The notes below the pieces were generated by a model. The model saw nothing but the letters and a program-made list of their open reading frames with translations, made no database searches and was not told where the DNA came from. From assembly GCA_036172245.1 (NCBI GenBank), contig JAYWIR010000005.1, forward strand, positions 124,001 through 188,000: a stretch of DNA of 64,000 nt, given 5' to 3'. This DNA comes from Raillietiella orientalis. Lineage: Eukaryota. Below are positions 6,001-39,300 of the stretch, in pieces (the stretch's first letter is position 1; each line of letters starts with the position of its first letter). A program made the translations under genes and the position numbers.

Positions 6001-9000
6001 GAAGAGAAGTCAAACAAGGAAGTAAAAAGGAAGAAAAACGACGAAGAAATGCAACCAAAGGACGAGACAAAGAAAAAAGACGAAGCTGAAAAAAGAAAAG
6101 AAACAAAGAAAAAAGAAGATAAGGAAGCAGAACTGAAAAAATGCTCTAGGGAAAAAAGTAAAAAGAAACACGAAGAAAGTCAGAAAAAGCCCGAACAGAC
6201 TGCAGAAATTTCAGAAGTACAGATTGAGCATGCTCATGATGAGAAGAAGCAAAATGAAGAACTTGAAAGAATACTGGAATTAAAACTGAAAGAAAAACGA
6301 GAAGAAGAAATGCGAATGCTGGAAGAGGAAAAGAGAAATTTAGAAAATGAAAGAAAGCACTTGAAAGAGCAGCAGCAGAAGCTGTTGGAAGACAAACTAA
6401 AGTATGAGCAGGAAATCAGGAACAGAATCTCCAAGACCATGCAACAGGTATTTTTTTTCTTCTGATGTTTAATGCTTAAGGGGGACAGAAACCTTGGTCA
6501 GCATTTGGTTCAAACTGAAGTTAGTGTTCTATTGGTCGTTATGAAACTGTTGACACGAAACATAATGAAAAAGGGGGCATTGGGAGCAAGAATTTCCATT
6601 AGCATTGTCAATACTCTGCCAGTGGAACATCCCTAAATCTCGTGTTGTGCATTTCGGATTCTTCAACACACACGTACAGATTCAAAAGCATTCTGGATTT
6701 CCAATTGCCATCACCATTCGCATTAGACATGTTTTATTGGAAAGGCACTTGCCTTGTGAATGGTTCTTGCGGTTTTTAACAATGTATCTTGCAAAGCGAT
6801 TTTGAATGCTGCATCTGTCGTGGTCTCATAACCATTTTCTTATTCTCCCAATGGCATGTTGTGCCTTCACTCACGAGTGAAGCTAACTGGTCCATGTGTT
6901 CTTCCGAGGTTACAAACATGTAGGTGGTAGCAGATTCTCCAGGACTGAGGAAAATTTCCGTGGCGAGTGACGCCCAGCGTAATAACACATAGGCTAAGGG
7001 ATTACTTGGGTGAAAAGTAACTGTCAGGTTACCTGGCATCTCATCATGAACGTAACGGTCGCCTTCAGACATTAAGCCCAGTCTTACGATTCTTCTCATG
7101 CAGCTGTTTTTTCCCATCAGTCCGCCCCCGTGAATCCTGGCATCGTATTTTTTAGTTGAGTTAGTGGGAGACTCTACAGGTCTTTGCTCTGGCTTTCAGC
7201 TTATACGGAACTGTGTACGCCTTTTGTGCAGCCCGAATGTTCCAAAACGGAAGAGGGTGAAATACGGAATCTGTTAAAATTCGCTGTCATTTACGCGTTT
7301 CGTTCATTCGCAATTTCAGAACTGTTGGTTCAACTCTTAGCAGTGATGCTTTAATTGCGATTTAAATCTCATTAAGTTGGCAGCGACCTCGGACGTTTTC
7401 TGGGATCTCATGTCAATTGTGATCAAATTGGATGAATTGCCTTTACATGTTTGGGGAAAAACTAATAAAAATGTTTATTTTGCAAGCAGATAGTGGAAAA
7501 AGAGGTTGAGAAGAAACAGGACGCTTCCAAGAAACTGTGTGATGAAAATGAAGAAATCATCAAGAATTTGAGGCATGAGATAGAAAACAAAAAACTCGAG
7601 ATCTTGGCCAAGCAAGGAAAGTCCCCAAGCACCAGTGATCATCAAAATGACAGGTTTTTGAATTGGCACATTGAGAAACGGAGGATTTTTCGATTTTTTA
7701 GAGCTGCAAATGGCACCAAGCAGTTGAAAGAAACAGACCAGAACCTGGAAAAGAACAGCATAAAGAAGCACGTTCCAGTTTGGGGTAATCCAGCCAACAT
7801 AAACAATCCGCCCAATTTACTTGAAATTCAACAGATGCAAGAAAAAAGGGAAAAATCGAAAGAGGTATTTTCAAATTGATACTCTACAACTTTTTGATCT
7901 GTGATAGCACACTGCTTCCATGAAATCAACTGTTGAACACAGCAATAGTGGCAGTGCTTTAAATAGCAAACCATGCAAGACTCCCTTTTGTTGGGCAAAT
8001 CTGACGAGAGCAGCCTATGAGCCTGTCCTCTCCTTGACTGAAATACAGGCTGAGGAAGCAACCAAATTGAACAAGGTAAAGCAGCTTTCTGTTAATGAAT
8101 TAACTGCTAATTACTGTGTCCGTACTAATTTTCTCTTGCAAGAAGGCTATGTTTGGGTCCTGTCGATCCGATCTGGCCAAGAGGTTGTTTTCTGCAACAT
8201 CCTCTTTGTATCTGTTTTGTGCTGTCTGATAATTTCGAGCATATTAAGGTTGACCTAGTCATTTCAATGTGCTGACCGAATGTTCAGCTTTCTCCTAAAC
8301 TCAAGCAAATGATCCTCTTTCACTACCAGTTGTGTGCATTGCTATCAAAGACCTTCCTATTCTTTCGTAACCAAGTGTTGACCTGTTACTGTGTTCTCTT
8401 AGAGTCTCCTGGATCTGCAGACTCATCAGAGCTATAATTCATTTTCACGTGTTTGTTCCACCCGTTAAAGTCTGTAGTCGTTTTCATCGAATTGGGAGCG
8501 TTTTTTGAAGTGGTTGCATTTGTGATCACAGTGCTCTTGATTGATGGCCATGATTTTCGCATGCCCGTGTTTGTCACCGCAAGTCGTAACTTCATCGTTT
8601 CAGTCTTTTTTAACCATCGTGGCGTAAAGACAATTAACCGCAGTCACTTCCTACCGAAGAAATTATTCTTCCTTGGACCAATGTTTCCAGAAATTGAAAA
8701 AAAAATCGAATGGTTGGAACCGAAGCTCAAGTTCCGCCTGCCTATTCATGTTTTGAAAAAAAAAAAAGAAAGAAAGAAAAAAAAAATGCGAACATTGAGT
8801 TTTTTTTTTCCTTTTTTTTTTTTTTTTTTTTTGCGTTTGCTGATTTTGTGTACGTGTCAAGAGGCGACGGGTTTTCCACGGGCTGATTTTCCCATGGTAG
8901 CGTATGAGGCAGGCCGTCCAAAGGCTGCAAACGACAAGGCAGCTGAGCAGCCTTCAGTTTCGATGTTGCAAAACACGTGAGCCGGCGGCATGCATGTGAC

Positions 9001-12000
9001 TGAGCGGCAGTCTCGACAGCCGATCGTGGTGGACCTCCGCAGCTGTGTTCGTTTCATTGCCGTCCAGGGTGGAGGCTTTTCCGAATCGTCATGAATCTTT
9101 GGATCCTTTAAAACATTGGTTTGGATCTGCTTTATTTATGAATCACACTCTAGAAATTTCGTGCTTTCAAGGCAGATCCTCTCAGCGTTTGCGGTTATCG
9201 GTTGTTCCAAGAACCGAATCGAAAGTGTCGAACTTTAACTTGCCTGAAACGCTCGTCTTTGCCAGGGTCTCCATTCCCATAAGGTTTGCATTCCCGAGGA
9301 AACATTTTTTTCTCGAACACCTTTTGATGAAATTGCGTGCGGGAGCTTTGAAAAGAGGGAGACAAGCAATCGGGGATTTGGCGAAAATACTGACCCTTCT
9401 TACAAATTTCCGTAGGAGAGGAAGGAGAACATTCCGGATCCCTTAGCTTCTTCGGGAACGTGGAGTTCCGTGTTTCATTCCTCAAGGTCCGCCCCGAAGA
9501 ACAGCAGTGCGTTCCACGCAAGTCTGCACAGCGTCCCAGGTATGCGTACGGGTGACTCCCGGGCACGTGGGTGAAATGTCTTTGACGCTTACGCATCCCT
9601 CGTTTCAGAAACCAATTTGAAGAAGGAGACGGTCAGGGGGAAGCAGAAGAAGGAACAAGATACTGTCCTCAAGCTGTTCGAGAGCGAGCTGCAGAAGAAT
9701 CTAGACGATTTTACCAACTGGTGCGTCAATGAGCTGTCCAACATCAACGTGTGCTTGGATGGTAAGCACGGTTTGTTCCACGATTCTCCAGTGCAGCCGG
9801 CTGCTTTGCCCTCGCCTACGCTCCGTCCACTTTCAATTGCCGTGTCGGAGAATCCACGCCTGCGCCACTATCCGTTCATGCCCAGGGTGCAGCTGTGGGA
9901 GCGCAGGGCGTATGGTGGGCTTGATCACGAGATCGGGCCGGAGCGCTCTCTCTCCTCTTCCCACGAATCTTCAACGCCCGGGAACCGCGGCCCATCGCGC
10001 GAACCCGAAGTTTCCCAGGAGTGACCGGTGCTCTCCGCCCACGAAAGTCCCGCCGGATCACCAGAAACCGGGAGAATGGTGATTTCTGGAAAGCCGAATT
10101 CCCGTCTTTCTTCTTTTCTTTCTCCGCCGTCGCTTCCACCCCTTCTCGAGGCGTGCCCAGAGCTTGAAGGTCTCACGTGTTTGCGTCAGCGTGCGTTTCG
10201 ACGTGATCTGGTTTCTCGGTTTGTCCGCTTGCCTGTTTGCTTTCCATTCCGAACCGGTTGCATGTAGAGCCGGTTGCATCTTCCACATCCGTACCGGTTG
10301 GCATAGTTTTCTGACGTCAGCGGTTGCCGGTCCGTGAAAATAAAAGCAAACGAACCGCCTTAAAAAGAAGAGAAAAAAAAAGCCGTGTGCGAATCACGTA
10401 AGCGGTCTGGTTTACCCGCTTGCTTTGGAGTTCCCTTCTCCCTTCCTCATGCCCCATCCGCCCCCTCTTTCTCTCTGTGTGTGTATGTGTTGCTGGCTGC
10501 TGATGCATTCCGTGTGTCCCATCCCTTTTACCAACGGTTCCGTAGACAAGCACGATTTTTTTCTGCTTTCAGTCCCCACCTTTGTTAGCTTCCTGAAAGA
10601 CATTGAATCCCCCGCGGATGTAGCTGACTATGTGTACACGTATCTGGGAGAAGGAAAGGAAGCAAGGGATTTTTCAAGGCAGTTCTTGGAAATGCGTGCC
10701 AAATGGTCCACGGTGCAAAAGGTTCGCGACAGGCAGAAGGATCACGTCAGCCAGCCCGATCATGCAAGCGACCTCGCCCATGTGGAGCTCAAGGAAACGA
10801 AGGTACGGGGCGTCCCTCTCCCATCCCGTTTCATGCCATCGGAAAGGGATGCGGGGTCAGCGTGACGTGTGGGGTAGGGACGTGCTGATGCCAGTTGTGG
10901 GGAAGGGGATGCGGCTGATCCAGGCGGAGGGCGAGCGGCTCCGGGGCACGCACCTCTGATAGGTAAACACAAAAGAACCGAGTGAGCGAGGCGGAGGCGG
11001 AGGGAGTGACAGCAGGTAGCGCCTCCCAGAAAGCAGGTCTTCGCCGGGTGATGGGGAGGCTTACCTGCCCCTTGGACAGCTCCGCAACTGGGGCTAATGC
11101 TTGCCCAACATTTGGTGACGGCGCGGACCCCAGTCGGTTTGGGGGGGGTCTCGTGCTAGAGGATCTACATGGCCACTGTTGAGGTTCGCGCTTGGCTGGG
11201 TCACGTGGAGGTCCGGAGCCAGGGGGTGCGAGAGGAGAGGCTGATCGCCTGCCGGATGTTTTTCTTGGTTCCCCACCGAGTTGCAACGCGGGGAGTTTAA
11301 TAATCGAACCGTGGCCGTTCTCCACCGTGGTCTCCTTTGCGCCTTCATCTTTGAAACGGAGCTTGAGCGGTATCAGACGACGGACCAAACAGCGACGTCA
11401 TGGAAACGAGAGGTGGCCTATCGATCGTACGCGCACCGATCCGTGTTTTGCGATCATCGAAGGATACTTCCTGGTTGCGGAATCCCTTGGGAAAATTTTG
11501 CGGGGAAATTGTCCTTTCCCACTCCAAAGGTCCTCACAGCGTGGCGGTTGCCGTTTTTATTAATTCTCGCGCTAGTCCACGAGTGGCGAACGGAAGGACG
11601 TGCCCGTGCGCGTAACGTTTTCTGTGCCATTGGATTTTAACAACGTGCTTAGCGTTGCCTCCTTTGGAAGATCCCCGAGGCTTTTCGAGTCTTCCCCGTG
11701 CGTTTCCAGATTCCTAGGTCGTGGGTGGGCGGCAGTCCGAGCTCGCAGCTTCTGCGTAGGGCACACCCCTGGCGCAAGTTACCATCGTTTCTTGTTGCGG
11801 TGCTGCATCATCTCGGGGAGGCAGCTTCCCTTGCAGGAAAGCAACCGTCACGGCACCTCTTACTCGTTTCTGGCACTCGCACGTCTTTGGGAGAATCTGT
11901 CGGAACTCAAGCTGGAGGAAGGGCGCTTCGGGAAAAACGTGACCAAGTGCCCTCTGTTCGTGGTGTACTCATGCCCTTCTCTTGCAGGTGAAAAGCAAAG

Positions 12001-21466: not shown

Positions 21467-22549
21467 ATGTCGGGTAATCGGAAGAAATGGATCCGCTGGC
21501 TGCAGTGCGCGTACTGGGCCATCAGGAAGGCGCCGCTGCGAGACTACCCCGAAACTTCTAGATCCAAGCGAGGGCGAATTCCGCCTCCGGCACTTTCCGC
21601 ATGATCTTCCTCCCATTTCGAACAGTCCGCCTGACCTGCGGCAACGTGCCCTCGGTCGCGGCCATACAGCCCAAGGTGTTCCTGGACTCCGACGACTTCC
21701 TGTGAGTGTGTCGGGCAGAGGGAGGTTCGGTTCCTCACCTGCTTTTCGGCTCCAGGAACTCCGAAATGCCCTGCGAAGACCCCATGCTGAAGTTCGTGGA
21801 CCTGCAAGCGTGGAAGATCTCCTCTCCCAACTTCCTCCCCACGGACGTCCTGCAGGACTCCTTCGAGAGGGCGAAAAGGGACGCCGGCGCGATGGCGACC
21901 GCGACTCACAGGCGCTTCGCCACAGGTGGGACCGCGAGAAAATTGGGGGTTCCCTTCCTCCTCAACCTCGCACCTACCCTGCTCTTCAGCTTTTCTGAGC
22001 TTCCCGTTCCCGTTTCTGCGAGGCCGTCGTCTCGGGGCCAGAGAGCGCTCTCGGCTGTCTCGGAGAAGGGGTTCGGCTGAACTCGGCGAAGCCGCGGGGA
22101 AAGCGGACCTCTTTCCCCGCGGGCGTGTTCTGGAAAGAGGTGCGCGCGATTCTGAGGAGTCCAGGAAGTCCACCGGAGGGACCGCTCAGGCGGCCGAGCA
22201 CAGCGAATTCCCCCGGCACCCTCCGCGCGACCCCTCCCCGACGCTGATTTCGCGCAGCTTCCGGTTGCCACGGCGGAGCAGAAAACTCATCGACCGCCCT
22301 TCCTGCCCGGCTGCTCCGCCTCCGGATGGAGCGTCCCCCGTCAAATGCAAGTGCAGGAAGCAGACGCATGTGCGACCTCCCTCGCCACTCGTGGCGCGGA
22401 GGTCACGGAAGTCTCGGGTCCATCCGTCGAGTTGCCGCGTTGCGATGCCTTGGAGAAATCCGGGAAAGCCTCGGGCTGTTCCCGCCACGGACGCGAGCGA
22501 GCGGCAGGGATCCGATAGAAAGGACCTCCCTGTTCGTCAGGCCGGCTGA
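21467..22549 (+). CDS. Unidentified multi-exon orphan gene, R/P/S-rich C-terminus
   Basis: Phase-consistent exons 21626-21701 (RLTCGNVPSVAAIQPKVFLDSDDF), 21756-21925 (NSEMPCEDPMLKFVDLQAWKISSPNFLPTDVLQDSFERAKR...) and 21990-22549, separated by 54- and 64-nt GT-AG introns. Strong GC3 bias; AATAAA at ~22762. First exon and start (ATG 21467) uncertain. Confidence 0.5.
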
Positions 22550-22863
22550 GATGCAGCGGGACCGCCAACCCCCTCGGGGTGCTGCTTCGCCGCCTGAGGC
22601 GGTAAGCGAGACCAGGGGAGGCATTAGCGTTGTGGGTTCCACTCCACCCGTGGAGCGTCGACGCCGGGAATAGGGTGTGTGGAGTGTGTGGTCGTTTTCG
22701 CGTGCCCTCGCAGTACGACGCTGCTTGGCCGGACCACTGTCATCAAAGACTATCTGCTTTAAATAAAGAAAAAAAAAAAGACTATCAGTTCATTCCTGAG
22801 ATGCTTTGCACTGGCATTTACATGAAGATCCTCACATATTTGGACAATTTTGCATTAACAGAT

Positions 22864-23110
22864 CTATAAAGCAGCGCGGATTTCTGGACAAGCGTCGTTG
22901 TCTTCTATTGAACGCTCCATCGGATGCTTTTCTGGAATAGCACTTGCCATCCAAGCAGTCTCAGGATTTCTTATGCTTATGCTATCAGTCGAATCGTTGA
23001 GCCAATTCTTGAGGTGCGGGAAGACGTGGTGGTCAGTGGACGCGAGGTCAGGACAGGGTGATCGAAAAGTTCCCATTTGAATTTCTGATCGTGGTACTGT
23101 TTTGTTTGGG
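22864..23110 (-). mobile_element. Decayed mariner (Tc1/mariner, DD34D) transposase C-terminal fragment
   Basis: Minus strand reads FKWELFDHP-(frameshift/deletion)-PDLASTDHHVFPHLKNWL, matching the mariner signature W(E)xxxHPPYSPDLAPSDYHLFxxLKNWL. No intact ORF or TIRs seen. Confidence 0.75.
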
Positions 23111-25194
23111 CCTTCCGGATAAGAAGCGGTACTTACGAGTTTTTGTTAGCCGTCCGTATTTCGCGCCGATGGCAAGCTGACTCCATCCTTAGAAACTTTG
23201 GCTCGTTGTCGATTAGGGCCTTTCAAAGAAAGAGTCTAACGGCTGGAGTAGCGTCCCACCAGAAGCGTAAGTTCACTCAGCATCAAAGACGCTTAGTAGA
23301 AAAAAATCCTTTGAAATCTGTAGCACAAATGTAGCAAGCCCACCATTCTACAACAAGATGGCTCAGCGTGCTGTCTTGCTCCATGCTGCTTTAGAAATAC
23401 GGACGGTGAACAAAAAATCTGGAAATACCAATTCTAATGGGGACAGAGAGTGAGCGACTATCCTTGTATCTTTTCACCCATCCTGCTGAATCACTGAATT
23501 GAGGAACTCCAAGAGTGGTGGCTGTTTTGAATTAGCTTGACTCTGGTTGCTCATTGCCTCCCGAGAGCATCTGATTCATCCAATCTCCTTCGCCTCTGAC
23601 CGAGGGTCATGGTCGCGTTGCCATCCCTTCATTCCACTTAACAGTATTCTGATCCTCACGAGAGTGCCCGGTCAAGCCAATGATTTGAGTTGACCTTTCG
23701 CATTAGACGATTACCTGATGGGAAAGTCGGACCAAATCCAGTCCAAGCAGTCAAGAGAGACACGTAGACGTGCGAGGAAAAGCAGCGCATTTGATTTTTT
23801 GTCGTGCACTTACGAAAAGAGGAGGGAAATTCGCAAGTTGCTTCCTAGGGGCCTAAAGCTGATCTCGTCATCGATAGGTGGGACACTCGGTACTCCGCTG
23901 CACCTTCCCACCGTAAAATTTGGGACAGCAGGAAGAATCCCTCCTTTCTTTCATTTCATCGATCTGCCTACAAGAACACGATGAGTGACGATGATGGTTT
24001 GCTTTTATGGACACCGATCACTTTTGTTGACGCTTCGTTTTCTTGATTCAATTTGTTATTCAAGTACAAAGTATAGAAGCCAATGTTTGGTCAGCTACAA
24101 GCTTAATGTTTTAGTATTTAGACACGGCGTCATCTTTTGATCCGGAGTGTTCTCTGGAGGAGCTACTAATTAATTGCGGTTCGGTGCTGCTGTTCACGTA
24201 CACAGCCATGGACTTACTATCCTTACATTACATGGACACATTCATAATCCCAACAGATTGTCAATCAACTCTTCTTATTCTAAACATGCTTATCCCGAAG
24301 GGCTTTTATCTTTAAGATTTCAAACGAAGTGCTGGACCATGGTCTAATCTCGGGAATGTCAACAGCTCTCTAAGGACATGTATTTTTTAGAAAATTTCAC
24401 AGCTATGTGTCAATGGACTTCAGAAACAGCAATTCTATTTATCACGCACACACCTATATAGAACTGTGTGTGCTTAGAGTATAATCATATGAATTTTTTC
24501 AAACCCAGTAAGATAAATAACAAACACTATTTCCAAGAAATTGAGAGAAATCTTGTGGATACTAGTGTACCCGAATGTAGATGTAAATTGCTGCGAGACA
24601 GAACGAGCAAACGTGCTCATTTTATTTCTTCAGTATGAGACAAGCTCATAGAGCAAGGATTTCACAGATCAAAGATGCACTAATCAAAGATGATGCACGA
24701 GTAAAGGGTTTTCTCAAAACATCGATTAGTGGTGGGAGAAATTCAGATCCCCGAACTGCACACATCATCATACACTGGGATTTTTCTCCAGCTTCTTCAC
24801 GATCTGGATGTAACATTGGATCTATGGATATAATGGCCTGTGCTCATACAGGGGACTGCTATGTGAAATATAGATACTCAGTTCACAAGGAATTTATCAT
24901 TATTGGAACCACATTAGTACATTAAAATGTCGTTCGGGAACAGGGTCTTGACAGCGAGAAAGTGCCAGAACTTTCGCGGTTCAAAACATCACATTGAGCT
25001 TGGCTCATACTAAGAAATCAAATCGAGCCGTTTCCTGCAACCTTTCATTCGAAGCACAGCATTATTTCTGCACTCTCCGTGGTCTGAAGGAGCAACATTA
25101 TGTATGAAACGCACGTAGCATTTCCAATTCATGCGGAAGTAATACGTCAAAGCAGGTAATCCGTATAACAAATCTTGCTAAAGCGTGGCATTTT

Positions 25195-26410
25195 ACACAT
25201 CTGGGCAAACAAAACACTTGGGATACAGCTCGTGGTCATCCTCTGTTTCGATATGCCATGCAGTTGCGTGAAAATTGATGGAGTGACAAATGACCGATCT
25301 TGAGAGTGCGATCTGAATAGCGCCCGCGGACCTTACATAAGCCAGGAACAAATTCATCCTCGAAGGTATTGTAGATTGCACTTTGTTTTTGTTTGAAGTC
25401 TCCTTCGGCAGCTACATGCGTACGGATATCCAATACTTTGAATCCTACTCGGCTAAAAATCAAGGGAGAAACTAGTGAAAAGAAAGCTCCGAAACCTATG
25501 GGCAGCCAGGAAGACCAAGCGACCAGCTCTTGCGGGAAGGAGGACACGATGCTGAGAGACCAACAGCACGGGGGGCAACAAGCGCTCCAGATAGATAGCT
25601 GAGGAAGCTCGGAAGGATATGGAGAGCCCCTCCTGCAATGCATTATTAAATTGTAAATTTAAACAACAAAAAGTTCTCCCACGAAATCTCACAACCGGGA
25701 TGGGAAGCAGAGTACCTGATGTTTGCAGCTGGTGACATTGATGTGTCACGACCCATCAGGGAGCTCATTATTAGTGACAATTCCGATTCGCTAGGAGACC
25801 AGCTAGCTCGCTGCTTAAATGCGTCTTTCATGAAATCTGCCCTTCGGAAGAAAAATCTTGCAATCTCACATCCTTTCCCCCTTACGAGCTCGACAAGCGC
25901 GGAGAGTGCAGTCGTTTCCGAGTCGGGAGAGACCTTGAGGGAGCATCCTCGGAAACAATCCGGTTTAGCGACGATCCTGTTCCAAATGCTGGAGGCGATG
26001 AGGCAAACACAGAGCTGGTTGCACGCCGAAACAAGGATGGTCGTGAGAAGCAGTACCTGATTCGTTTGCTTTGGTGGTGACCGATGACCAACGTGCAGAA
26101 CGACAGGAGCGACCGAGAGCGGGCAGACTGCGAATTCCGTTTCTCGATGACCCCAGTATGCTTCCATTTCCCCTATCCGAAGACCGGCACCAATCTCCGG
26201 TACACGAAATCGGGTTGGAGCGAAAATGCGCCTCATTCCGAATTGACGATCTGGATGCTGGAGCAGATCTTGAGGAGATTTCGCGCTCTTGGACAGCCTT
26301 TGGTCTCGAGTGGATAGCAGAAAAGGAGACAAGCCTTCTGTTCGTTTAGACGTTCCTTCTGTCGTTAGAGTGGGACAGAACGAATAAGAGCGTCGAATAA
26401 AGTTCCGCAT
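25195..26410 (-). CDS. Part of an unidentified multi-exon Ser-rich gene downstream of kanadaptin (may extend ~27.4-23 kb)
   Basis: Short GT-AG introns at 26056-26015 (42 nt) and 25885-25842 (44 nt) join SSVFASSPPAFGTGSSLNRIVSEDAPSRSLPTRKRLHSPRLSS to ADFMKDAFKQRASWSPSESELSLIMSSLMGR in frame. A further exon-like segment reads RVGFKVLDIRTHVAAEGDFKQKQSAIYNTFEDEFVPGL. Gene ends not resolved; no homology recognised. Confidence 0.4.
25747..26349 (+). repeat. Left arm of 603-bp inverted repeat (probable donor copy)
   Basis: Reverse complement of 33750-34352. ORF translations in several frames are identical between copies (92-, 77- and 69-aa ORFs and the shared ~200-aa core), and spot-checked nucleotides match. 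Confidence 0.97.
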
Positions 26411-27618
26411 ATCATATGATTGTCTTGAAGACCTGCCGTTCCAAGCTGAATGATGTGGCAGAAACAGAAAGCAAAATGCAGAAACTCAAGTCCTTTGCCG
26501 ATTATGGATATTCCGTGTCCCTGAATTCTATGAACCGAATCCCAGTGGCTCCATTTTAATCCAAGTTGACTCCTACGCTGAAGCACCGTCACATTACAAC
26601 AGTTCATTTTCTGGATGAGATTTGCCTTCCTGATTTGCGTTAGTCGAAAATTACGCAGCATCGAATTTACGAGTTATGCAAAGCTGCCTATTATGATCCA
26701 CTGCATCCAATACATTTTGACAATTTTGCTTGAGCTTTTTAGACAACGTTATCTTAACATAAGGTTATCTTCTCTTTTGGTTATGAGTTCTCACGCCCGA
26801 ATTACGCTGACGGTTCATCACATGTTGGTCTTCCCTGGACGAGGAGAGTTTGGCAAGAACCAAACGACTTTCGAGATTTCCTTATTTCTGCAACCTCCTG
26901 AGGTTTTCACAAATATTTCCCGTATCTGCGATAAACTCGCTTCCTAGAGAACATGGGGGGTTAGGGAAAGGCACAGACGGAGAGATGGTAAAGGATGCTG
27001 AAAGGTTTGAATTCATTACTGGATTCCACTTTCATGTTACTGTGTCCCAAGTTTTTCGAAATTTTATTTGGGTGTTTCAGAGGATGGTAAGATGTGTTGA
27101 GCCTTTCCTACAAGTTGACGAGCTCTGAAGTTTTCAGCATGCCATGATTTGCGATCACAAATAATCTGAAAAGTTCTTGGGTTGGTATGAGGTAGCCAAA
27201 ACGTTTGGACAAACAGCTAGCTGAATGAGGAAACAAAACCTGTGTTTCAACAGAGAACCATGAAATGAAGATATGAATTAAGACGTGCTATTGAAATACG
27301 GGTTTTGCATTTTCCACTGCACCAAATAACACCTCTGCCGCAGATCTTCTTCAATTCTTTTTCGTCGTTGTATTTCAGAATTTTCTAGCACCTGTGCATC
27401 AACGCATATATACAAACACAGGCAGGTCAAGTATTAAAATACTTTAAAACGTAAGAGCCAATAAACTTATATTAGAGCATTATACAAAAACTTTCTTACA
27501 CTGTATTGTACAAAACATAATCTACAATATTCTTTTTCGGTGGAAAAGTGCACATTAACGGCAGTAAAAGAGAAGTATCTTCAACCACAGGATGCTGGAC
27601 CTCATTTAACCCCGACTT

Positions 27619-30600
27619 TTAGTATCCGTAGATTGCGTTGAGTTTTGTCTTCCCATCTCCCTTTTGATCTGCTGGAGGTAGCCATAAATCGTACTTCGAA
27701 TCCACTTCATACGAATTGCTGTCACTGGATTCGTTCTGAAATGACCACGATGAAGAGCACTGAATACGAAAATTAACATCTGTACTGAACAGTTGCGAAC
27801 CAACAAGAACAAAATGCATTACCTGGGTCGGACTGTCAATTTTTCGCTTCTTTGCCATTTTATTGGCAGAAATTCTACTGCCAGCTTCCGTAGAATCACA
27901 TGGATTACAATCAATGGTACATGCATTTGACGATACTTCAGGATCTTGAATTAAATGGTCTTCTCTGGAATTTATCTCGTCTGTAGATGAGACCACATTA
28001 TTTACTGGCGAGCACCGTTCTTGTTCATCCATCTCCTCAACGCCCTTACTGACTTTTTGTTTCTTTTTCTAACAGCAATATTATTTCGCAAATAGTTTTT
28101 ATAACTTACTTGTTTGGATGTCCCTTCCTGTGCTTTCTTCAGTGCATGCTGAGAGGCGAATGATGTTTGAAAAGATGGCATCTCAGCTGGCTTGGTAATG
28201 GCTATCAATTTTTCGAAATATTCTCTCTGGGCTTCCAATTTATTTAACTGTATCTAAAGAATAGGCCAAATATTTGAAGCAATTTGGACGAAGGCATTCG
28301 AAAATGATAGAAAACAAGGAATTCATTTCAAGTAGAAAATGACACTTCAAAAGCAATCTGAGTGAATATGAACATCTACTAAATGCGCGTATGTGTTTTA
28401 CAAAGAATGATCAATCAAATAATAAAGTACTGAGAAACAGCACAGAATTCAACAAAGGATATTTAACAGATTCAGTTTGTTATAAAAAATGAACTGTGGC
28501 TCTGGAGGAAAAAAAAAAAAAAAAAAAGACAAATGCTTCACAAACACCTAAGGTACAAAATGCGAGATGCACAAACTGCTGCCTGAAAAACTCTTCAAAG
28601 GAAGAAACACTTAAGTCAATAAAAACCCGAAACAAACACATGCAGTTTTCAACTTCATGTGAAGCACAAAAGCAAACTGGAATCATACGATTATCTTTGA
28701 TTTAACTTAAATAGCTGCAATGGAGCTCTAATTAGTATGCTAGTTTTGCAAAAAGCACTTTGTATTAATGTATGTTTAGCTTACATCAGCATATCCAAAA
28801 GCTTTACCCATGAAGAACAGATGAGAAAAAAAAACGAGAAACAATTTTTTTTTTTTTACGTACTTTGAGATTGGCAGAAGAATTTGAACTGCATTTACTT
28901 GAGTGTTTCAAAGATGACATGTAAGCATCTAAACTATCCATGGTACTTGGATCATCTGGGATAACTACAGAGAAAAACATTTTTCTTAACATGACTTTTT
29001 CTGTTAAAAATCCAGGTGACTTCAATGCATGACTTGAAACATCATTTTCGTTTTAAACATCACGTGAATAACTACATTTTTCGATTTCTTATGCATACTT
29101 TTAGACTTACCGGGCAAATTTTGTTTTTCTTTGAGAGCATGCTGCACTTCTTCTATTTTCAGCAAAACATCTTTATGCTTCACCAGCTGAAAGAAATTTG
29201 GAAAATCAAAGCAAGCCACTTATATTGAAACAATAATTAGGAAAAAAGGTTTTCCTTTATAAGAATAATAAAAGTTTTGAAATAGCAAATCACTTTTTAG
29301 AATGAGAATTTCATTTCAATGATATTACCAGGTCTTCATAAGTATCAATCTCATCAAGAATTTTTCCGGCAGTTTTCATTCTCTGTTCCCGTTTTTTAGC
29401 TATGGTACCAGTTCTGTCTAAAAACTCATCTTCATCACTATCATAATAATCATTTTCTTCCCATTGCTTGAGCATTTTCGCTTTTGTCTCTAGAACATTT
29501 TGCAAGACATTTCACAATAATTATTAGTGTTTCAAATATATATGTTACTTGTACACATATACTAATATAAGGCATGCTCATAAGAATAAGCGCATTTTTG
29601 ATGCACTTAAATCACGTTAAACATAGGAAATATTACGAAAATTATGTTACGTATTGGTGCAAGCATATTTTCATTTTGTTTCAGAGAAGACAAGGAATGA
29701 AGAGCAAAAATAATACTCATGCTAGTTCCAAACAGAACATGTGGAAAATTGAAAAGCTGCAAATTAAAAATGAAAATTTCAGACATCCAGAAAAAAAATT
29801 ATGAGAAATACAAGTCACACCATTACTCATGCAACCACATTGCTCCAGTTTCCTTCCAATTGCTATTTATTACAACTTTATTACAACTGTATCAACATTA
29901 CCTGTAATCGGAGTTTCTTTCTCTACAGAACAGTAATATTTTTTCAGCAAATTAAAAAGTACATGGAAACGGTACAATGTGGAAGTACAATCCGAGAAAT
30001 TAAACATTTCCACATGATAATAAACAATAAACATTATATTTTCTTACTACTACATTACTTTACACTATGTTACAGATTAAGTCATTCTCAAGTATTCAAG
30101 AGCGTTGATCAACAAGAAACAGAATTACAATGTTGGGTGATACCAAACACTAATGGCATACGGTAAATTCCGACATATCATGAAAATATCATGAATTCAT
30201 TTCACACAGCAGCTTAGAAAATCTTAAAGCCTCATGCTACTATAACATGATCACAATACGTTGCATTTATACAGATCTTCCAAGTGCTAATTTTTGTAGC
30301 CCTGGTACAAAAGTTTAGTTGTAGAAATTTAATATCATGAAAATAAATTTTAACTAAAAGAATGGGAAATTATGAACTTGCAAACAAATTAAATTAAAAA
30401 GAATTACATTCAAACAAAATCAATACAAAAACATCTTGTTTAGCATCACACATCACATGCCTTTGAGATCAAGATAACATTCAAGAAGGCAACTTTCAGT
30501 TGCTGTATCTTCATATCCCACTTTCATCAGGACAACATGATTCAATAGAACTGTGAACAAATAATGAGTCAAAGAATTCACTTTAGAGGGAAAACTAAAT

Positions 30601-33006
30601 GTCAGTAGTTTTGACTAAAAACAAACAAAAAAAAAAAAGATTTGATGTCCCTAAATGTGAGATTACAAGGTGATGAAAGAAAATAAGTGAGATGAACTTG
30701 ACAATCAAATGCTTCATGTAAAATCAAATGCAAGTATGCACTCACAGATTCTATCTTACTGAGTTTAAAATGAATACAAAAACGTAATTTCAATGAACTA
30801 ACCATTTCTTGATGGTTGTAGCAAACCAAGCTGATCAAGGGTTTCACATGCATTAAATGCACATTGAAATATAGCTTCCTTTTTTTTCCCTATTACTGTT
30901 GCCTCTACAATAGTAGGCTTTCCAGAAGAGTTATTTACAGGAAGTCTAAAATAAGTTCAGTCACAAAAGGGTTTTTATTTCCCTTCACATTTATTAAATT
31001 TTCTTTTTGATTTCATCAAAATATTTCAGGAGCAATCAGTCAGGGAAAATTCTTAAACTTTTATTTCCTGCTTTTCATTTTATTTATGTATATGTATTAA
31101 AGAAATCAAATCACACAAGGAATTATACAGTGCAACAAAAGTACCCATAAAATGCAATATGATAATGGCAAATAAAAATGAATAATAAAAACGGGTAATA
31201 AAAATCACAATTCTAGCATGAAGTTGTTAATGAAAGTTCATAGGATCTTACATTCAGGAGCACTACAGTATTATATGGACAGACTTATAGATTGGAACAG
31301 TAAGAGACTGAAGTGAACACCTGAAAAATCTGAAACTTCATATGAAGCACAAAAGCAATCTGAAGTACCCACCAATCAATTCAAGTAACAGAACACAAAA
31401 AATTCATCAAAGATGCAACGAACATGAAATGGCCAATCAACCAGGGAGTAAAAATACGGTTTTAAATGATATGGCAGTAATTATAAGATGTGCGCACATA
31501 GATAGATAAATTTACATATGAATTGGCTTAGAAAATGATGGAAAATGCTTAAAATTAGTAAAATACATAATGAACATCTACTATTTAAGTGTTTCATTTT
31601 GTCAAAAAACAAACAGCATTTAATGAAGAATATTTTTACATTACAGCATCTGAAATTTACATAAAACTTGAAGTACTGATTCATTTGTCAAGAATACCAA
31701 ATAAAAACAAAAATTGCTTATATCAACATAATACACTCAAAATATAATTAATACTTTGACATTTAAAAAAAGGATTAAAAACGATTTTTTTAAGCTATTA
31801 ATTTCTAATTGTGAAAACAGTAAATCCTTACTCCACTCTACAGGTAAATTTTCTCATTCCATCTTCTCTACAATCATATTCTAATTCATAGCCTTCTCTT
31901 TCAAACCATAATCGCAAACACTTTTTTGGATCATTTGCATACAACCTTGGATGAAGTTCATGCACTTCTGCAAATGGGTTTTCAGAATTATCATTGCCTT
32001 CATCGGTGTCAAACTCTTAAATATACACCAGCTATAATTATAGATCCGCTGAATACACATTTAATTACCTAATCCCCAATTAATGCCATCCCCAGATGCT
32101 TCCACTACACTGTCATCATTGGAAGATAGCATTTCCTCTTGTTTTAATTCACGGCAACTCTCTGAAGGCTGCTCATCTTCCAGTTCTTTACCCTAAATAA
32201 CATTTTTTTATCAAGAATAAAATCTGCACTTTAGAGCTGAGCATAGGCTCTACAATTTATTAGATTCCATAGAAATGTACCTGAAGAACAATAAGGCGTG
32301 TACTTCCTCCAAACTTCAAACAAAAACCAACATGCAATCTATAATACATTTGAGGATGAATTTGTGTTTTATTTAAGTAAGTTCCATGGGTGCTATTCAA
32401 ATCATATACATAAAATCCGGCATTTGCCACCTCATCACTTTTTCCACGATGCTGTATAACTGCATGGCATCTTGAAACAGAAGGATGATCAAAGACTACA
32501 TCACAAGTGCTTTGCCGGCCAATTATATAAAATGGCTTTTTAGTAAGATCTACTATCTGGACTATCTGTCCTGATTTAATAATCTCTAAATTATATTCAG
32601 TTTTACAAATTTCACTCCATTCAGGTTCCTTATATATGGCAAGAGTTGAAGAAATACTTTCAGACTGGTTGTCACTTTTGGGTATATCAGCTTGTGCACT
32701 AGTCGCATCAGCTAAACCTTTTACATTGTATTTCGACGAATTCTCGGTTTCTTCATCATGTTCATGGACTTCACCTTCCTCAGCCAAGGTAGAAGTAGTC
32801 AACACATTATCACATTTATTTTCACAGGTCCTCTTTTTAGAGATATTTACACAAACAGAGAAGGATGGTTTTTTGAACAATTCATCATCGTTCAATGTAG
32901 AAGACACCAAATGATCAGTCTTTTTAATGCCTTCAACTTTTTCTGATGCAATACTACAACTCTCGTTAACTTTTTCCTTCATGATCGATTCAAATCGGCA
33001 AAACAT
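27619..33006 (-). CDS. SLC4A1AP: Kanadaptin (FHA domain + dsRBD-like region, nuclear)
   Basis: Exons 33006-32281, 32192-32069, 32015-31832, 30945-30803, 29489-29329, 29186-29111, 28964-28864, 28253-28110, 28068-27823, 27759-27619. FHA motifs YKEPEWS...IGRQSTCDVVFDHPSVSRCHAVIQH...DLNSTHGTYLN...KFGGSTR; GINWG; ENPFA...DPKKCLRLWFEREG; KKKEAIFQCAFNACETLD; WEENDYYDSDEDEFLDRTG; DSLDAYM; C-terminal WLPPADQKGDGKTKLNAIYGY*. Start could be ATG 33006 or 32982. Confidence 0.93.
28651..31362 (+). repeat. 29-bp motif repeated in two kanadaptin introns (28651-28679 and 31334-31362)
   Basis: aacttcatgtgaagcacaaaagcaaactg vs aacttcatatgaagcacaaaagcaatctg (2 mismatches). Partial third copy caaaagcaatctga near 28348. 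Confidence 0.75.
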
Positions 33007-33749
33007 TCGTAGGCGACATCTTTAAATCACAAAAAACCTACAATAAAAATAAAAATGGGTATGGGCTTAATGAAAATCCCCAGTGGAAGGAAACATGCTT
33101 TTAACATGGTGAAATCAGTTTTATAAACAATTATGCGCTGTTTCCTATTATTGTTAAAGAAAACATTTGCAACACACGATAAAAGAGCTGACCACGTTAC
33201 CTAATTACACATCCGTTTTATAAAAAGCACAAAACTTTTCATATTCGCTACTCATTAAAAAATTAATCACTTTCAACATTTCAGAATCACAACTTTCCTT
33301 CATTTGTATGCACAATAATAAGGGTTGCCACGATTAGTTTCGTATACATGATCTCGATTTTCGATTATATCAAACATTCCATATTTAAAGATCCTAAAGA
33401 AAATTCGTGTTTTCTAAAAAAATCATGAAGCAGATCTACAATTATAGAATAGAAATAACATCTGGAGATAAACAACATCAATCAATGTCTGTGTATGCAT
33501 TTTTGAGTGTTAGCTATTGCATAAGCTAAGTGAAAATTATATTGAAAGGAGCAATTTTGGTACTATGCCATCTTGAAGAAGTTTCAGTTGATAAACAAAT
33601 AGCATTAAGTACATTAAGCATTCATTCTTGCATGAGAATTTCCTCTGTGATACTTATTCATAATTTTTTATGTTGAGGAATATATCAATTTAAGAAAATG
33701 TCCTACACTACATTGCATTTTTCAATATTAACCTGCAATTTTCATCGAC

Positions 33750-34352
33750 CTAAACGAACAGAAGGCTTGTCTCCTTTTCTGCTATCCACTCGAGACCAAA
33801 GGCTGTCCAAGAGCGCGAAATCTCCTCAAGATCTGCTCCAGCATCCAGATCGTCAATTCGGAATGAGGCGCATTTTCGCTCCAACCCGATTTCGTGTACC
33901 GGAGATTGGTGCCGGTCTTCGGATAGGGGAAATGGAAGCATACTGGGGTCATCGAGAAACGGAATTCGCAGTCTGCCCGCTCTCGGTCGCTCCTGTCGTT
34001 CTGCACGTTGGTCATCGGTCACCACCAAAGCAAACGAATCAGGTACTGCTTCTCACGACCATCCTTGTTTCGGCGTGCAACCAGCTCTGTGTTTGCCTCA
34101 TCGCCTCCAGCATTTGGAACAGGATCGTCGCTAAACCGGATTGTTTCCGAGGATGCTCCCTCAAGGTCTCTCCCGACTCGGAAACGACTGCACTCTCCGC
34201 GCTTGTCGAGCTCGTAAGGGGGAAAGGATGTGAGATTGCAAGATTTTTCTTCCGAAGGGCAGATTTCATGAAAGACGCATTTAAGCAGCGAGCTAGCTGG
34301 TCTCCTAGCGAATCGGAATTGTCACTAATAATGAGCTCCCTGATGGGTCGTG
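33750..34352 (-). repeat. Right arm of 603-bp inverted repeat (probable recent insertion upstream of kanadaptin)
   Basis: Appears to be an exact reverse complement of 25747-26349. It is a ~50% GC island with sharp edges inside AT-rich flanks. Confidence 0.97.
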
Positions 34353-35244
34353 GCACATTAAGTTCATACGCATAATCACATTAAAACATATGTATTAATT
34401 AGGTGATTCCCATGATATTTGAATAAATGCATTTTCTGAGTCGAGGGAGACAAGGATTTTCCCTTTTCCATAGATATGGAGGCATTTCGGGAAGTTCGGA
34501 AACAATTTAACTGTAAAATTATTGGAAATACACTTTACTGATATGAGTGACAACTCATCTGAATGTACTTCTGATGGAAAAAATCGCACTTTTTCGTACA
34601 CTATTTTTTTTTCAATTAGATTCGAGCAGATGAAGGTATTCGCCTAATTTGTTAATACCTTGTTTTTTGTTATTCTTCACGTACTTGTGATTTTTATTCC
34701 TCTTTGGTTTCGATTTTAGTGAGAATGAATGTGAGAACTGATGTGTGTGACTGAAATTTGAGTAATGAGATGAATGTGAGCAGAAAGCATCTTTCTCTTC
34801 TTTCTCGATTGCCTTCGAGTAATGCTTCGAATCAAGTACTTCAAGTGAATTTTATCTAAAAGCAGGATGAAGATTTAGAAGCGAATCTTTCGCCTAAAGA
34901 AATACTCTGAATTCTCTGTGTATTCTTCTTCTACGAAGATGAAAAATAATGTGCCTCTTATAGTCTTACTAAGAGCTTCTCAGTCGCATTTCTCTGCTTA
35001 ATGAAATTATCGAGCTGTCTGCCTTTGAGGTAATTCTCTGGAATTGGTAATATGGTCAATAATGTATCTTCCATGTACCACTATTATTCGGAAGAAGCAG
35101 AAGAAAAAAAATAAAATTGCATTTTATATATTGCCTAGTAACTGCAATTATTAAGAGTTTTTCTTTCCCGAAATTACAAAATTACAGTCTCCAAGAAAGA
35201 TGTCTGATGGGATTCGCGTGTTTCAAATTTTGTTCTTCTAAAAC

Positions 35245-36399
35245 ATGCAGGAGAAGGGGATCATGAATTCGACAAATGCAGACGCCAATTTCACGAAAAA
35301 TTGCCCGTACTGCAACAGCCTGTACAAGCCTAATAACTGTCTGATGAAGAAAACCGGTGGGATGAGCAGCCTGGATGTCAACATTAATCTTGCGAAAGCG
35401 ATTCCCAACGATCCGAAAGTCCGGAATAGGGGCAGCGCATGTGAGCCAAGGAAAGTCGAACATGCCATCCCCTCTCCACAGAATCCACATTTTCCCAATA
35501 AAGCCGAGTATCAGATCCTAACGAATCTACCTCACTACTCACAGCATCGAGATCTGAACCCGTCCGTCACCTACACGCATCCCGTCAAATTCTTTTGCCC
35601 TCGGAACAGCCAGCAAAGCAGTGGCCCAGTGTACGGTTGTTACAACGCCGAAGCCTTAAGATGCCCTCACTCTGGTCCAGTTTCCAACTTCTCTTACATG
35701 TGTGGCCAAGGAGAAGGGATGAAAGGCGTGAGAGGGATGTACTCACAAATCCCGCAGAACTGCGTGCAGTACCGACCTGGCTGTACTTTCAATGAAATTT
35801 TCGAGCCCATGAATGCGGTATCGTATTTTCCTTCCTCCTACCATTATGCCCCCCATTGCATGCCTTGTTGCTGCCAGTTCTCGCTGAACGGACAGTTCCC
35901 TTCTCTGGACAATTCCAGACCTTACGTTCTCCCAGGGCCAACTCACCCTGCACACTCCATGCTCGACGCTGGAGGAGCAGCTTACAACTCTTCTGGTTTT
36001 CCTTGTCGACCATTTTCGCAAAAAAGCACATCTTCGAAACATGTGCCACCGAAATTTCAGTTTGGTGATCTACCGACAGTGAAAGGAGGCTGCTCCCACG
36101 TTTTTCAACGGGACGGGAAGCAAGACAGCTTGACAAGCGGACCAGAGAAGCTAGAGCGCTGTGGCGACCCAGAAGAAGAGGACGTGGACGAAAGCACAGG
36201 TTCTCCCTATGGTTCTTTGAGGAACTACTGCAACAAGAACGAAAAACTCGTGACTACGAAGGAACCGTTTGAAATAACGCGATCGAAAGAAGAATCTGAT
36301 GACGCTATTCACAAGAATAAAAACTGCAGCTTCAAAAAACGATACTGTGATTCTGGATACTGCAACAACAGCAACAAGATGGCCGAACTGAAGCTATAG
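35245..36399 (+). CDS. Uninterrupted 384-aa orphan ORF (P/S/C/Y-rich low-complexity N-terminal half, acidic/charged C-terminus)
   Basis: Long ATG-TAG ORF with higher GC than the AT-rich upstream flank. No recognised domain. May be an internal exon (acceptor-like sequence just upstream). Confidence 0.6.
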   Translation: MQEKGIMNSTNADANFTKNCPYCNSLYKPNNCLMKKTGGMSSLDVNINLAKAIPNDPKVRNRGSACEPRKVEHAIPSPQNPHFPNKAEYQILTNLPHYSQHRDLNPSVTYTHPVKFFCPRNSQQSSGPVYGCYNAEALRCPHSGPVSNFSYMCGQGEGMKGVRGMYSQIPQNCVQYRPGCTFNEIFEPMNAVSYFPSSYHYAPHCMPCCCQFSLNGQFPSLDNSRPYVLPGPTHPAHSMLDAGGAAYNSSGFPCRPFSQKSTSSKHVPPKFQFGDLPTVKGGCSHVFQRDGKQDSLTSGPEKLERCGDPEEEDVDESTGSPYGSLRNYCNKNEKLVTTKEPFEITRSKEESDDAIHKNKNCSFKKRYCDSGYCNNSNKMAELKL

Positions 36400-39300
36400 T
36401 CTATTAATGATGTTAGAAAAAACAGACTTAATCTACTGAGGAAAAGTAACTATCCTTTGTCGAGGAAACAGTCGAAATCGAAAGTGTTTGGAATGGTAAA
36501 CTCTCGAACTTCTTCTATCTACTCGTGGGACTCTTTTCGAACGATGTGACGATATGAGAAAACAATAAAGAAATGTGGCCTATTTTGACCTAACTTTGTT
36601 TCTGAACCTAGTGCTTTCAGAGAACTTATCAGAAAGACTGAAAGCTATGGGGATGCTGTGGAGAGTGAAACACGACACATGAGATTTGATGGTGAAATCT
36701 CCCAATCGTCCTTCCCGAACATGGCTGCAATGACTGAAAACATCCACAGTGAGGGGCAAAAAAAAAAAAAAAAGGGTAAAAAATTTACGCCTCGTCTCAT
36801 CCGAAGACTTTGTGCAACGTGAGAGAAGTCGGAACACTTTTCCATCAAGGAGGGAAGCCTACGGGCTTTCGGAAGGAGAACCAGAACTGCCTTCCTATGA
36901 GCACAGAAAAAGAGCGACGTTGCATCCTGTAGAACTTTGAAAGGAAATTCCAGCAGGTCAGAGACACTTTCCTGCATGTTCTATATATTAGTTGCACAAC
37001 GCAATTCATTTTCCGAGTGGAGCTGGCTCTTGGAGCAATTACGAAAGGTCACTGCAATGGAAATCAATAAAATAAATACTTACGAGAATTCAATTGGGAA
37101 TGATGAGTCCACCCTCGCAGGACATAATTTTCAACGGAAGATACTGAAAAATTCTGTTTCTTTCGAGCATTTTTGTTCTTGGCTCTTGATTAATCGGCAA
37201 CAGGAAAATGACCAGTGGGGGAACACCTCGTTTGGCCCGAATCGGTTCTCCTGAGCTGCATCCTGTTGTTGTTTTTAATTGAACTGCTTTTCTGATCTGA
37301 GAATGCCTGAGTACCTCATGAGACGTCTCAGGTGGCCACTGCCCATTTTTCTGTCTTCTGCTGCAACATTGCACACAATGAGCACGCCTAAGTCAAGCTG
37401 GCACTGTTTGTATTCTATGAAATTCATCCGACATGTTGTGATTTACACGGCACGAATTCAACAGTTCGCTCTTCATTCCACCAGGTCATGCCCTTTTCAA
37501 TAAGAGCAAACATCTCGCATCTGATCCTCCTTCAGTATCCGAAATGAATCTTTAAGCAATGAATACATGATTTGGAATGCTTTCAAAAATCAGATTTTTA
37601 TAAACGATAGGAAAAAAAGAAACACTCAGGTCTGATATTCCAAAATTGAGTTCCCTTTTTTTGATCGGAATAATGGAAACTTTCATGATGGAAAAGTCAT
37701 CTCCGTCAAACTTAGCAAAGATTCCTCTTGGTAACCTCTCTTGTTAAGATGAAAAATACCTGACAGTCTCAAACTGTTTCATCCGTCACGAACACTTACG
37801 AGATTGATGCGACGATATGCGATCGTGGTCACGATGAGTTTCTGCTCATTAGAATGCATGTTATCCTGAGAGCAGTGAGGAAAAAACAGTTTGCGTGGAT
37901 TTGCGTGGACAAGGAGTTTCGTTATCCGATACTAAAAAGAACCAAAGAAAAGGTTCCCTTTTGAAAATTCACAGCAATGCCGAAATTTCATAATCAGTCA
38001 AAATACACCAGCATGACTAGAATACATAATCTGGAATCAGCTCATAGGCATCTGTCAGCACAATAAATCTTGCGCTACATCCCGCTGTTCTTTTTGTAAT
38101 CCTATTAATCAGGGAGACTGTTGTTTCTGTGATTTGAGTTCTTTCTTCAGCTGTCACAGAAACACATACTATGAATAGTCTCCCAACCTAAAAGTTATGC
38201 TTCCGAGTAACCCGCATTTGGGGTTATCGTGGAGGTCAGTCCCGTCGGCGTGCAATGACCAGGCCTCGCGCCGGAGGAATTGCCGTCTTGATCACAATGC
38301 AAACCTCGAAGCCAGGTAAATGTGAACTATGAACAGTTCACGGTAATGAAAAGGCACAGATCATCGAGGATACTCTGAATAAAAATAAAAGTCTAAAATT
38401 AAAAAATGATCCTTTATCTCTAAATGGTTCCCCACAAACCAGCCTATGTTTCTCAGACTACTCCTAGCATGCTTATGAAATATAAAATCAGGATCTGTTG
38501 CTTACGGAATGCTGTTCCCTTACTCCTAACACAAGAAGGAGAGATATTGCATCTTCAAAAATTTCAATGCATTATTATTCACTGAATTCATTCACTTTGT
38601 CCCTCTTTTTGCCTCCATGGGACTATATGGCTAGAGTTCTTCATTTATATTTTGAGAGCTATTTAAGACTTTAGCTGCTAGTTTCTTGCTGTCTTTTGCG
38701 TTTGCAATACGTAATCTTCAATCAGTAATCTGGGTCTTTTATTTTGGGAAACAGTTCATCCGCTGTAGAGTTTATAAATGGGGAACATTCGCCAGCATTT
38801 CAAAAAGAATTGTTCTTCGCCCACGAAACAAGTAACAGCCATGTTTTGTCCTAAGCCCACAGCTCAGTGTACAAGGAAATGTTCATCCTTCATCAAAATT
38901 ATTAACTGACTGTGATGGCAACGTGCTAATCGAATCGCCTAAAATCGAGTCGTTTAAAAAAGTTATAGATCGAACTTGCTCCCAATCCTCTGAAAATTTT
39001 AGGGTATTGGTTGATAACTTGGTTTCTGTCAGTTTGGATGAAGTGCGTATCACGTTTTTCTAGAAGACATTCCCTCTTAGTGGATGCCTTTTAAGGATCA
39101 TGAGCAATGCACCTTCTGAAACTTTTCTTCAAGCACCGCATTTCAGGCTGCTAATGAAGCATTCAAGTAAATTTTATTTTCCCTGAGGTCTTTTAGAGAT
39201 AATGCGTGCTTTGGAATCTTAGGACAGTGCTTCATGTCCATTATATAAGAAATCTGAACCATAGTCATCGAAACTTATGATGTTGATTCATGATGTCGAA

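Follow-up and report, generated by a model that had tools for sequence, protein, structure and literature searches.

The window analyzed here, a stretch of 64,000 bp of Raillietiella orientalis DNA (positions 124001–188000 of the 6.24 Mb contig C5, in an assembly of 210 Mb and 491 contigs), contains a gene whose best homologs are named kanadaptin (SLC4A1AP), bracketed by two inverted copies, or arms, of a 603-bp sequence (Table 1). The FHA exon of the gene was recognized by Pfam (E = 1.9e-20) and has one intact match in the genome. In tblastn the exons ran on the minus strand from 32886 to 27622, up to the last residue of the homologs, with all detected exons located between the arms, so that the coding region is enclosed by the spacer as an earlier note on this DNA had claimed. 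The promoter may sit in 33022–33449, a stretch in which CpG is undepleted (10 CpG vs. 9.1 expected), and by our reading of the sequence a possible 17-nt splice-flanked exon adjoins the inner end of the right arm. For the ORF of 385 residues beyond the right arm there was no Pfam match, and the homolog search was empty.

Table 1. Coordinates (window positions) of the features at the kanadaptin locus.
Feature	Position	Strand	Remarks
Small element-like segment, MITE-like candidate	24606..25036		43-bp inverted ends, 86%
Old frameshifted inverted copy of kanadaptin 32656-32204 (old FHA copy)	25063..25485	+	~66-70% identical
Interspersed-element 3' end, non-LTR retroelement remnant	25489..25683	+	Longer relatives end in R2-like endonuclease region
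Outer-junction microhomeology, donor side	25738..25746	+	7/9 bases match 34361-34353
Left arm (X)	25747..26349	+	603 bp, 52% GC; probable donor
Imperfect near-tandem repeat across left inner junction	26334..26368	+	Possible repair filler or old slippage repeat
AATAAA, candidate kanadaptin poly(A) signal	27063..27068	-	~700 bp short of left arm
Kanadaptin (SLC4A1AP) coding exons	27619..33021	-	FHA exon 32260-33021; stop 27619-27621; ATG at 33006 or 32982
Right arm (X')	33750..34352	-	Exact inverted copy; probable recent insertion; flanks 29% and 33% GC
Outer-junction microhomeology, recipient side	34353..34361	-	
385-aa ORF	35242..36399	+	Diverges from kanadaptin, beyond right arm; candidate gene

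When aligned, the left arm and the reverse complement of the right arm were identical at 603 of 603 positions, and the exact match cannot be lengthened at either end. The BLAST alignment of the arms reaches slightly farther (25738–26349 with 33750–34361, 99.67% identity) by way of a short stretch of homeology on the outer side, and both mismatches in its 612 columns are found there, at columns 3 and 9. The spacer between the arms is 7,400 bp. A search of the assembled genome for the arm matched two places (2/2 candidates, the counts being lower bounds), indicating that it is not part of a dispersed family. The absence of differences in 603 bases places the divergence of the arms below 0.5% at 95%. 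The inverted repeat is real in the assembly and recent, and the earlier note is borne out in having described it as apparently perfect and as the product of a very recent event; the genome search for extra copies that the note had envisaged returned the two known places.

The arm is apparently non-coding DNA, with 52% GC and no depletion of CpG. It had no protein-domain match in Pfam or RNA-family match in Rfam, and a single arm folds no better than its shuffles (z = 0.78). Several candidate identities were rejected. Similarity to a decayed kanadaptin exon 3 was weak under one scoring scheme (17/500 shuffles) and was ruled out under HOXD70, for which 1,639 of 2,000 genomic controls were equally good. 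An Atlas lead (0.89, with low recognition) to an EMG1/SPOUT remnant in the arm ORF was met by a blank from Pfam, the genome's own EMG1 (on contig C22) gave no match, and 166/2,000 controls were equally good. Nor is the arm part of the neighboring retroelement, as homology of that family stops at 25672–25683. There was no older homology beneath the arms, the similarity between the outer flanks being matched by 171/200 shuffles and that between the inner flanks by 157/200. Separately, we observed a 36-bp similarity of 25701–25736 to 26044–26081 (0/200 shuffles were as good) that does not continue to 26350.

At the outer junction, seven of the nine bases past the exact repeat are homeologous, a match equalled by 338 of 200,000 random pairs: outside the outer ends one base differs, the homeology follows, and there is no direct repeat. 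Where the right copy meets its inner flank there were 0/12 matches, and any homology would be hidden inside the arm. The score of the near-tandem repeat spanning the left inner junction was equalled at 297/20,000 random points. Target-site duplications of 2–10 bp are absent at both copies, and no terminal inverted repeat was found inside the arm. Pfam identified no transposase or recombinase in 66 flank and arm ORFs, 27 spacer ORFs of at least 55 residues and the two kanadaptin ORFs, and there was no dedicated recombinase among the selected ORFs scanned between window positions 1 and 46,000. These results agree with the earlier note, which had reported near-microhomology at the outer ends, no target-site duplication and no transposase inside. 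By the tests of target-site duplication, ends shared with a family and transposase, the repeat fails as a TIR transposon, a MITE or a gene-carrying element.

The left outer flank carries the remains of other events. The old FHA copy was identical to the gene at 191 of 272 positions (BLAST; 0/100 shuffles reach its score) and consists of FHA exon plus the start of the next intron, continuing past the splice donor. Since the working kanadaptin gene retains both neighbors of the piece that was copied, we suggest from these sequences that the old FHA copy arose by copying and insertion at the DNA level and is not the scar of an inversion. This copy, which was absent from the earlier note, is a local precedent for inverted copying. 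The retroelement remnant next to it had five other matches at 77–85% identity, and its longer relatives matched an R2 protein with E = 0.0077; they carry what we take to be zinc-knuckle and endonuclease motifs, and a homolog search with the retroelement C-terminus returned nothing. The earlier note had described coding-like sequence on either side of the left copy. This description did not hold: the ORFs concerned are without a Pfam match, and the outer flank is composed of the 3' remnant of the retroelement and the decayed kanadaptin fragment.

To describe the possible histories of the arm pair we use letters: X is the arm, A and C are the outer and inner flanks of the left copy, and B and D are the inner and outer flanks of the right copy. 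In 300-bp windows their GC contents are 49% (A), 52–53% (X), 43% (C), 29% (B) and 33% (D). When four single-event histories were scored by GC adjacency, calibrated on the GC of adjacent windows in the surveyed DNA (see below), insertion of a copy from a left donor received a weight of 0.92 with 150-bp windows and 0.99 with 300-bp windows. An autoregressive GC model with longer context favored this insertion over the best-placed staggered inversion (A-X-B and C-D ancestral) by 93, 95, and 30 to 1. Abrupt GC edges also occur naturally: the survey contained 35 more, including one at window position 18,925. No homology spanning the arm-flank junctions was found in comparisons with the organism's own genome and between flanks.

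We consider that the arm pair is probably a recent germ-line templated insertion, made by local copy-and-insert repair of the SDSA/MMBIR type. GC-rich DNA from the kanadaptin 3' flank would have been copied, inverted, into the AT-rich 5' flank: a broken end would prime on the imperfect match at the outer junction, 603 bases would be copied off the opposite strand, and the inner end would be rejoined without visible homology. The left copy would then be the donor, with both of its original neighbors, the right copy would be new, and the kanadaptin gene itself would not have been inverted. The arms would be a neutral by-product, and possibly a substrate for rare ectopic recombination flipping the gene as a block. 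The features found are those of such an insertion, namely a low-copy, near-identical donor 7.4 kb away, homeology at one junction and the lack of a target-site duplication. The homeology is one-sided (7/9 at the outer junction vs. 0/12 at the inner), in keeping with priming by a broken end at a partly matching site. The direction of this insertion, its mechanism, its germ-line reality and its neutrality are what we infer, and the direction of copying in particular would follow from base composition alone.

Near-identical pairs are present elsewhere in this genome. We surveyed 858 kb all against all, comprising positions 1–458 kb of C5, taken because the window lies there, plus a 200-kb block each, chosen arbitrarily, from contigs C1 and C9. 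Within single contigs this gave 29 alignments with a length of at least 200 bp and an identity of at least 90%, 11 of which represent a tandem array where the contig begins. The pairs of at least 600 bp and 99% numbered four: the 603-bp pair, a 10.8-kb inverted pair on C5 with copies 278 kb apart, an 833-bp direct pair on C5 with copies 56 kb apart, and a 902-bp direct pair on C9. The 10.8-kb pair has a third, partial copy at 99% among the best 38 of 5,682 repeat-search candidates, and the third match of the 902-bp pair is partial. The 833-bp pair has mismatches confined to its first eight bases, leaving an exact core of 825 bp which exceeds the 603-bp arm and has homeology at one end only; other members of its repeat family are at most 82% alike among the matches listed. 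The window itself contains a further pair of two copies (1,111 bp, 97%). The direct pairs (825-bp core, 902 bp and 1,111 bp) support copy-and-insert events because no inversion makes direct orientation. Two further inverted pairs (four rows) were among the same best 38 of 5,682 candidates, and these are chance finds as opposed to an unbiased count: one on C12 with arms of at least 1,757 bp (99.83%) and a spacer of 6,448 bp, and one on C24 with arms of 2,445 bp (99.88%) and a spacer of 3,584 bp. We read the 603-bp pair as most likely a neutral product of DNA repair, and pairs of its kind are common in this genome.

A different history, which we regard as rather unlikely, is that the pair is the scar of a recent 8-kb micro-inversion, brought about by a staggered break or else by two switches of template. 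In the original state kanadaptin would have been on the plus strand just past the arm, and the 603 bp between the cuts would have been duplicated at both ends, giving an inverted duplicate of non-repetitive DNA in the size range reported in the excerpted text of PMC1885836. The near-tandem repeat at the X|C junction resembles SD-MMEJ junction repeats as they appear in an excerpt of PMC2943611, and would mark X|C as new. If the inversion were undone, the old FHA copy and the gene would also point the same way. Moreover, on C24 repeat-family alignments pass from the right arm to its outer flank (two hits) and from the left arm to its inner flank (one hit), with none across the remaining two junctions, which is the pattern of a staggered inversion because each arm continues into one flank only. 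However, the other inner flank on C24 is itself homeologous, so that this precedent is not clean, and at kanadaptin the inversion needs an ancestral step from 53% to 29% GC at the inner end of the arm, as was found in 11/5,303 comparable windows, with a likelihood 30–95 times below that of insertion. The earlier note had preferred a templated insertion in inverted orientation, and the GC models favor this too, with the donor on the left; the note's dismissal of a staggered-break inversion was too quick given the near-tandem repeat at the left inner junction and the pattern on C24. Our relative weighting of insertion and inversion is a judgement and not a computed posterior. The other single-event histories, in which the right copy was the donor or a staggered inversion broke at the right end, are very improbable: the microhomeology is symmetrical and gives no direction, but together they received 5% (150-bp windows) and <1% (300-bp windows) of the GC-adjacency weight. 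A technical origin, in which one of the arms stems from a mis-join, from a whole-genome-amplification chimera or from homogenization of a copy during polishing, is improbable as well. The perfect identity of the arms would suit it, as would their geometry, since amplification chimeras are mostly inverted, <10 kb apart and joined at overlaps of 5–8 nt (PMC9984789, in excerpt). Against this, an artifact would require two switches returning to the right place; long reads, if they were used, should span a 603-bp repeat on a 6.24 Mb contig; other near-identical pairs retain internal differences (24 in 8,498 columns, and a single one in each of the pairs on C12 and C24 once mismatches at the ends are set aside), so homogenization of repeats is not complete; and the locus also carries an older copy event that is clearly biological. 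Read-derived contigs from run X1 (6% of words) comprised 26 short or partial contigs on 26350–36700, with no joints and zero depth at 33616–34307, a result that speaks neither for nor against an artifact.

Recombination between perfect inverted copies of 603 bp is possible in principle, and the arms could be functional, kept identical by gene conversion and serving to flip a kanadaptin cassette or to yield fold-back dsRNA or endo-siRNA; we find this most improbable, and a functional invertible kanadaptin cassette unlikely. In its favor are the 17-nt candidate exon at the right arm, which would place the arm within a kanadaptin intron, and the recurrence of inversions between inverted repeats in humans (11/16 analyzed, in excerpts of PMC3961182). 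Yet the flanks are without the older homology expected from gene conversion, the ORFs scanned (selected, from positions 1–46,000) contained no recombinase, a flip would turn the coding region in its entirety, a single arm has no exceptional fold, and similar pairs bracket unrelated sequence elsewhere. Fold-back dsRNA would also require read-through past the candidate poly(A) signal, which precedes the left arm. If the promoter is within 33022–33449 it would turn with the gene, so that a flip would change little; if the 17-nt exon is real, the transcription start would lie within the arm or farther out, and a flip could then have consequences. The invertible-cassette and dsRNA readings of the earlier note are no more than possibilities: the ORFs scanned held no recombinase, and this genome has many near-identical local pairs of a comparable kind. 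A broader and quite doubtful proposal is that this genome produces kilobase-scale segments bracketed by near-perfect inverted repeats, which flip or segregate both ways, the ends of kanadaptin having undergone a double inverted exchange. Three segments bracketed in this manner were found, with spacers of 3.6, 6.4, and 7.4 kb and arms at least 99.8% identical. In that reading the ends of kanadaptin exchanged sequence in inverted orientation twice, the FHA-exon piece first and then the 603-bp arm. Were it true, the choice of template in repair could be steered by a 5'–3' gene loop, and through the arms a housekeeping gene may now be polymorphic in orientation or give rise to dsRNA.

As a single locus, a fresh repair scar adjoining a conserved gene is of little weight, and what the 603-bp pair offers is a clean example that can be dated, along with a check on the assembly. 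Confirmation of a genome-wide class, or of both kanadaptin orientations, would show the origin of micro-inversions and of recombination substrates in a compact animal genome, and would make the idea of templating through a gene loop testable. In literature searched by gene, and not by organism, for kanadaptin or SLC4A1AP with inversion, duplication or inverted repeat, the locus was unreported among the matches listed.

Bacterial and phage invertible segments, the basis of phase variation, have short sites and a site-specific recombinase, and their inversion changes a promoter-gene or gene-gene junction. The kanadaptin locus resembles them in that inverted repeats flank a segment that could be flipped, but no short sites, recombinase or junction change were seen here. 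It is also like the recurrent inversions of humans, described in excerpts of PMC3961182, in having near-identical inverted repeats around a few kilobases with a gene; in humans, however, both orientations were validated by genotyping and recurrence was tied to large repeats, whereas here one orientation is known and the arms are 0.6 kb. In Drosophila, staggered breaks leave inversion-associated inverted duplications (PMC1885836 and PMC4965816, both in excerpt), and in 17 of 29 inversions unique DNA was duplicated in this way, over lengths from 46 bp to 1.9 kb (PMC1885836). Our pair likewise comprises two inverted, non-repetitive copies of the same size range bracketing a segment, but the Drosophila model leaves one ancestral neighbor with each copy and base composition suggests that our left copy keeps both. 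Templated insertions and local non-tandem duplications have been attributed to SDSA or FoSTeS/MMBIR-type repair (excerpts of PMC5120786, PMC7407515, and PMC3420103), including insertions of hundreds of bases with junction microhomology (PMC5120786). The kanadaptin case differs from these in that its direction comes from composition and not from an empty allele and that its donor lies 7–8 kb off, across a gene; it is like them in having hundreds of bases taken from nearby, with short homology at one junction, a blunt join at the other, and neither target-site duplication nor terminal repeats.

The window alternates between AT-rich, CpG-poor gene bodies, among them that of kanadaptin, and stretches of 55-70% GC, a pattern consistent with gene-body methylation. 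Head to head with kanadaptin lies an ORF of 385 residues that is without a Pfam family and for which a homologue was not found within the length range searched.

Features of the window and of other contigs of the assembly (L-numbers denote stretches of contigs, with stretch-internal coordinates)
Feature	Location	Strand	Details
GYF-domain gene	window near 1.5-2.5 kb		AT-rich, CpG-poor body
Translation GTPase gene	window near 14.7-16.4 kb		AT-rich, CpG-poor body
Direct duplication, two copies	window 21627-22737; C5:56563-57672		1,111 bp, 97%
MITE-like element	window 22989-23438		
385-aa ORF	window 35242-36399	+	
U1 snRNA gene	window 38157-38323	-	Rfam, 83.9 bits
Trypsin-like protease gene	window near 40 kb		AT-rich, CpG-poor body
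Tandem array	L046 1-3409 (start of C5, contig end)		~294-bp units, 94-98%
C5 inverted duplication	C5:9753-20607; C5:298898-309758 (L046-L048, L070-L071)		10.8 kb, about 99.7%
C24 inverted repeat	L133 (C24:2030801-2040800), arms 735-3179 and 6764-9207		2,445 bp, 99.9%, spacer 3.6 kb
C12 inverted repeat	L132 (C12:1748801-1758800), arms 1-1757 and 8206-9962		at least 1,757 bp, 99.8%, spacer 6.4 kb

Near the left arm of the 603-bp inverted repeat, at 25063-25485 on the plus strand, the FHA exon of kanadaptin and the beginning of the following intron recur as an old pseudo-copy in inverted orientation (66-70% identity), its substitutions skewed to G/C relative to the gene. The flank just outside this arm (25701-25736) also resembles a mid-arm segment (26044-26081) over 36 bp (0 of 200 shuffles).

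The ends (~100 bp) of the MITE-like element match many paired sites genome-wide, 250-450 bp apart. The U1 snRNA gene is multicopy, with copies on C13 and C189 surrounded by inverted duplications (94-96%). Mismatches in the direct duplication cluster at one end, and the tandem array has a Ser/Thr-rich look. The C5 inverted duplication encloses 278 kb, including the entire window, and has a third, partial copy (99%) at C5:1034091-1036480.

Two further inverted repeats have kilobase-scale spacers. Both arms of that on C12 contain a tRNA-Ala(AGC) gene. In the C24 repeat, homology to repeat families runs on from each arm into one flank only, which would be the pattern of an inversion scar, the inverted duplication left by a staggered-break inversion, in which each arm keeps one ancestral neighbour.
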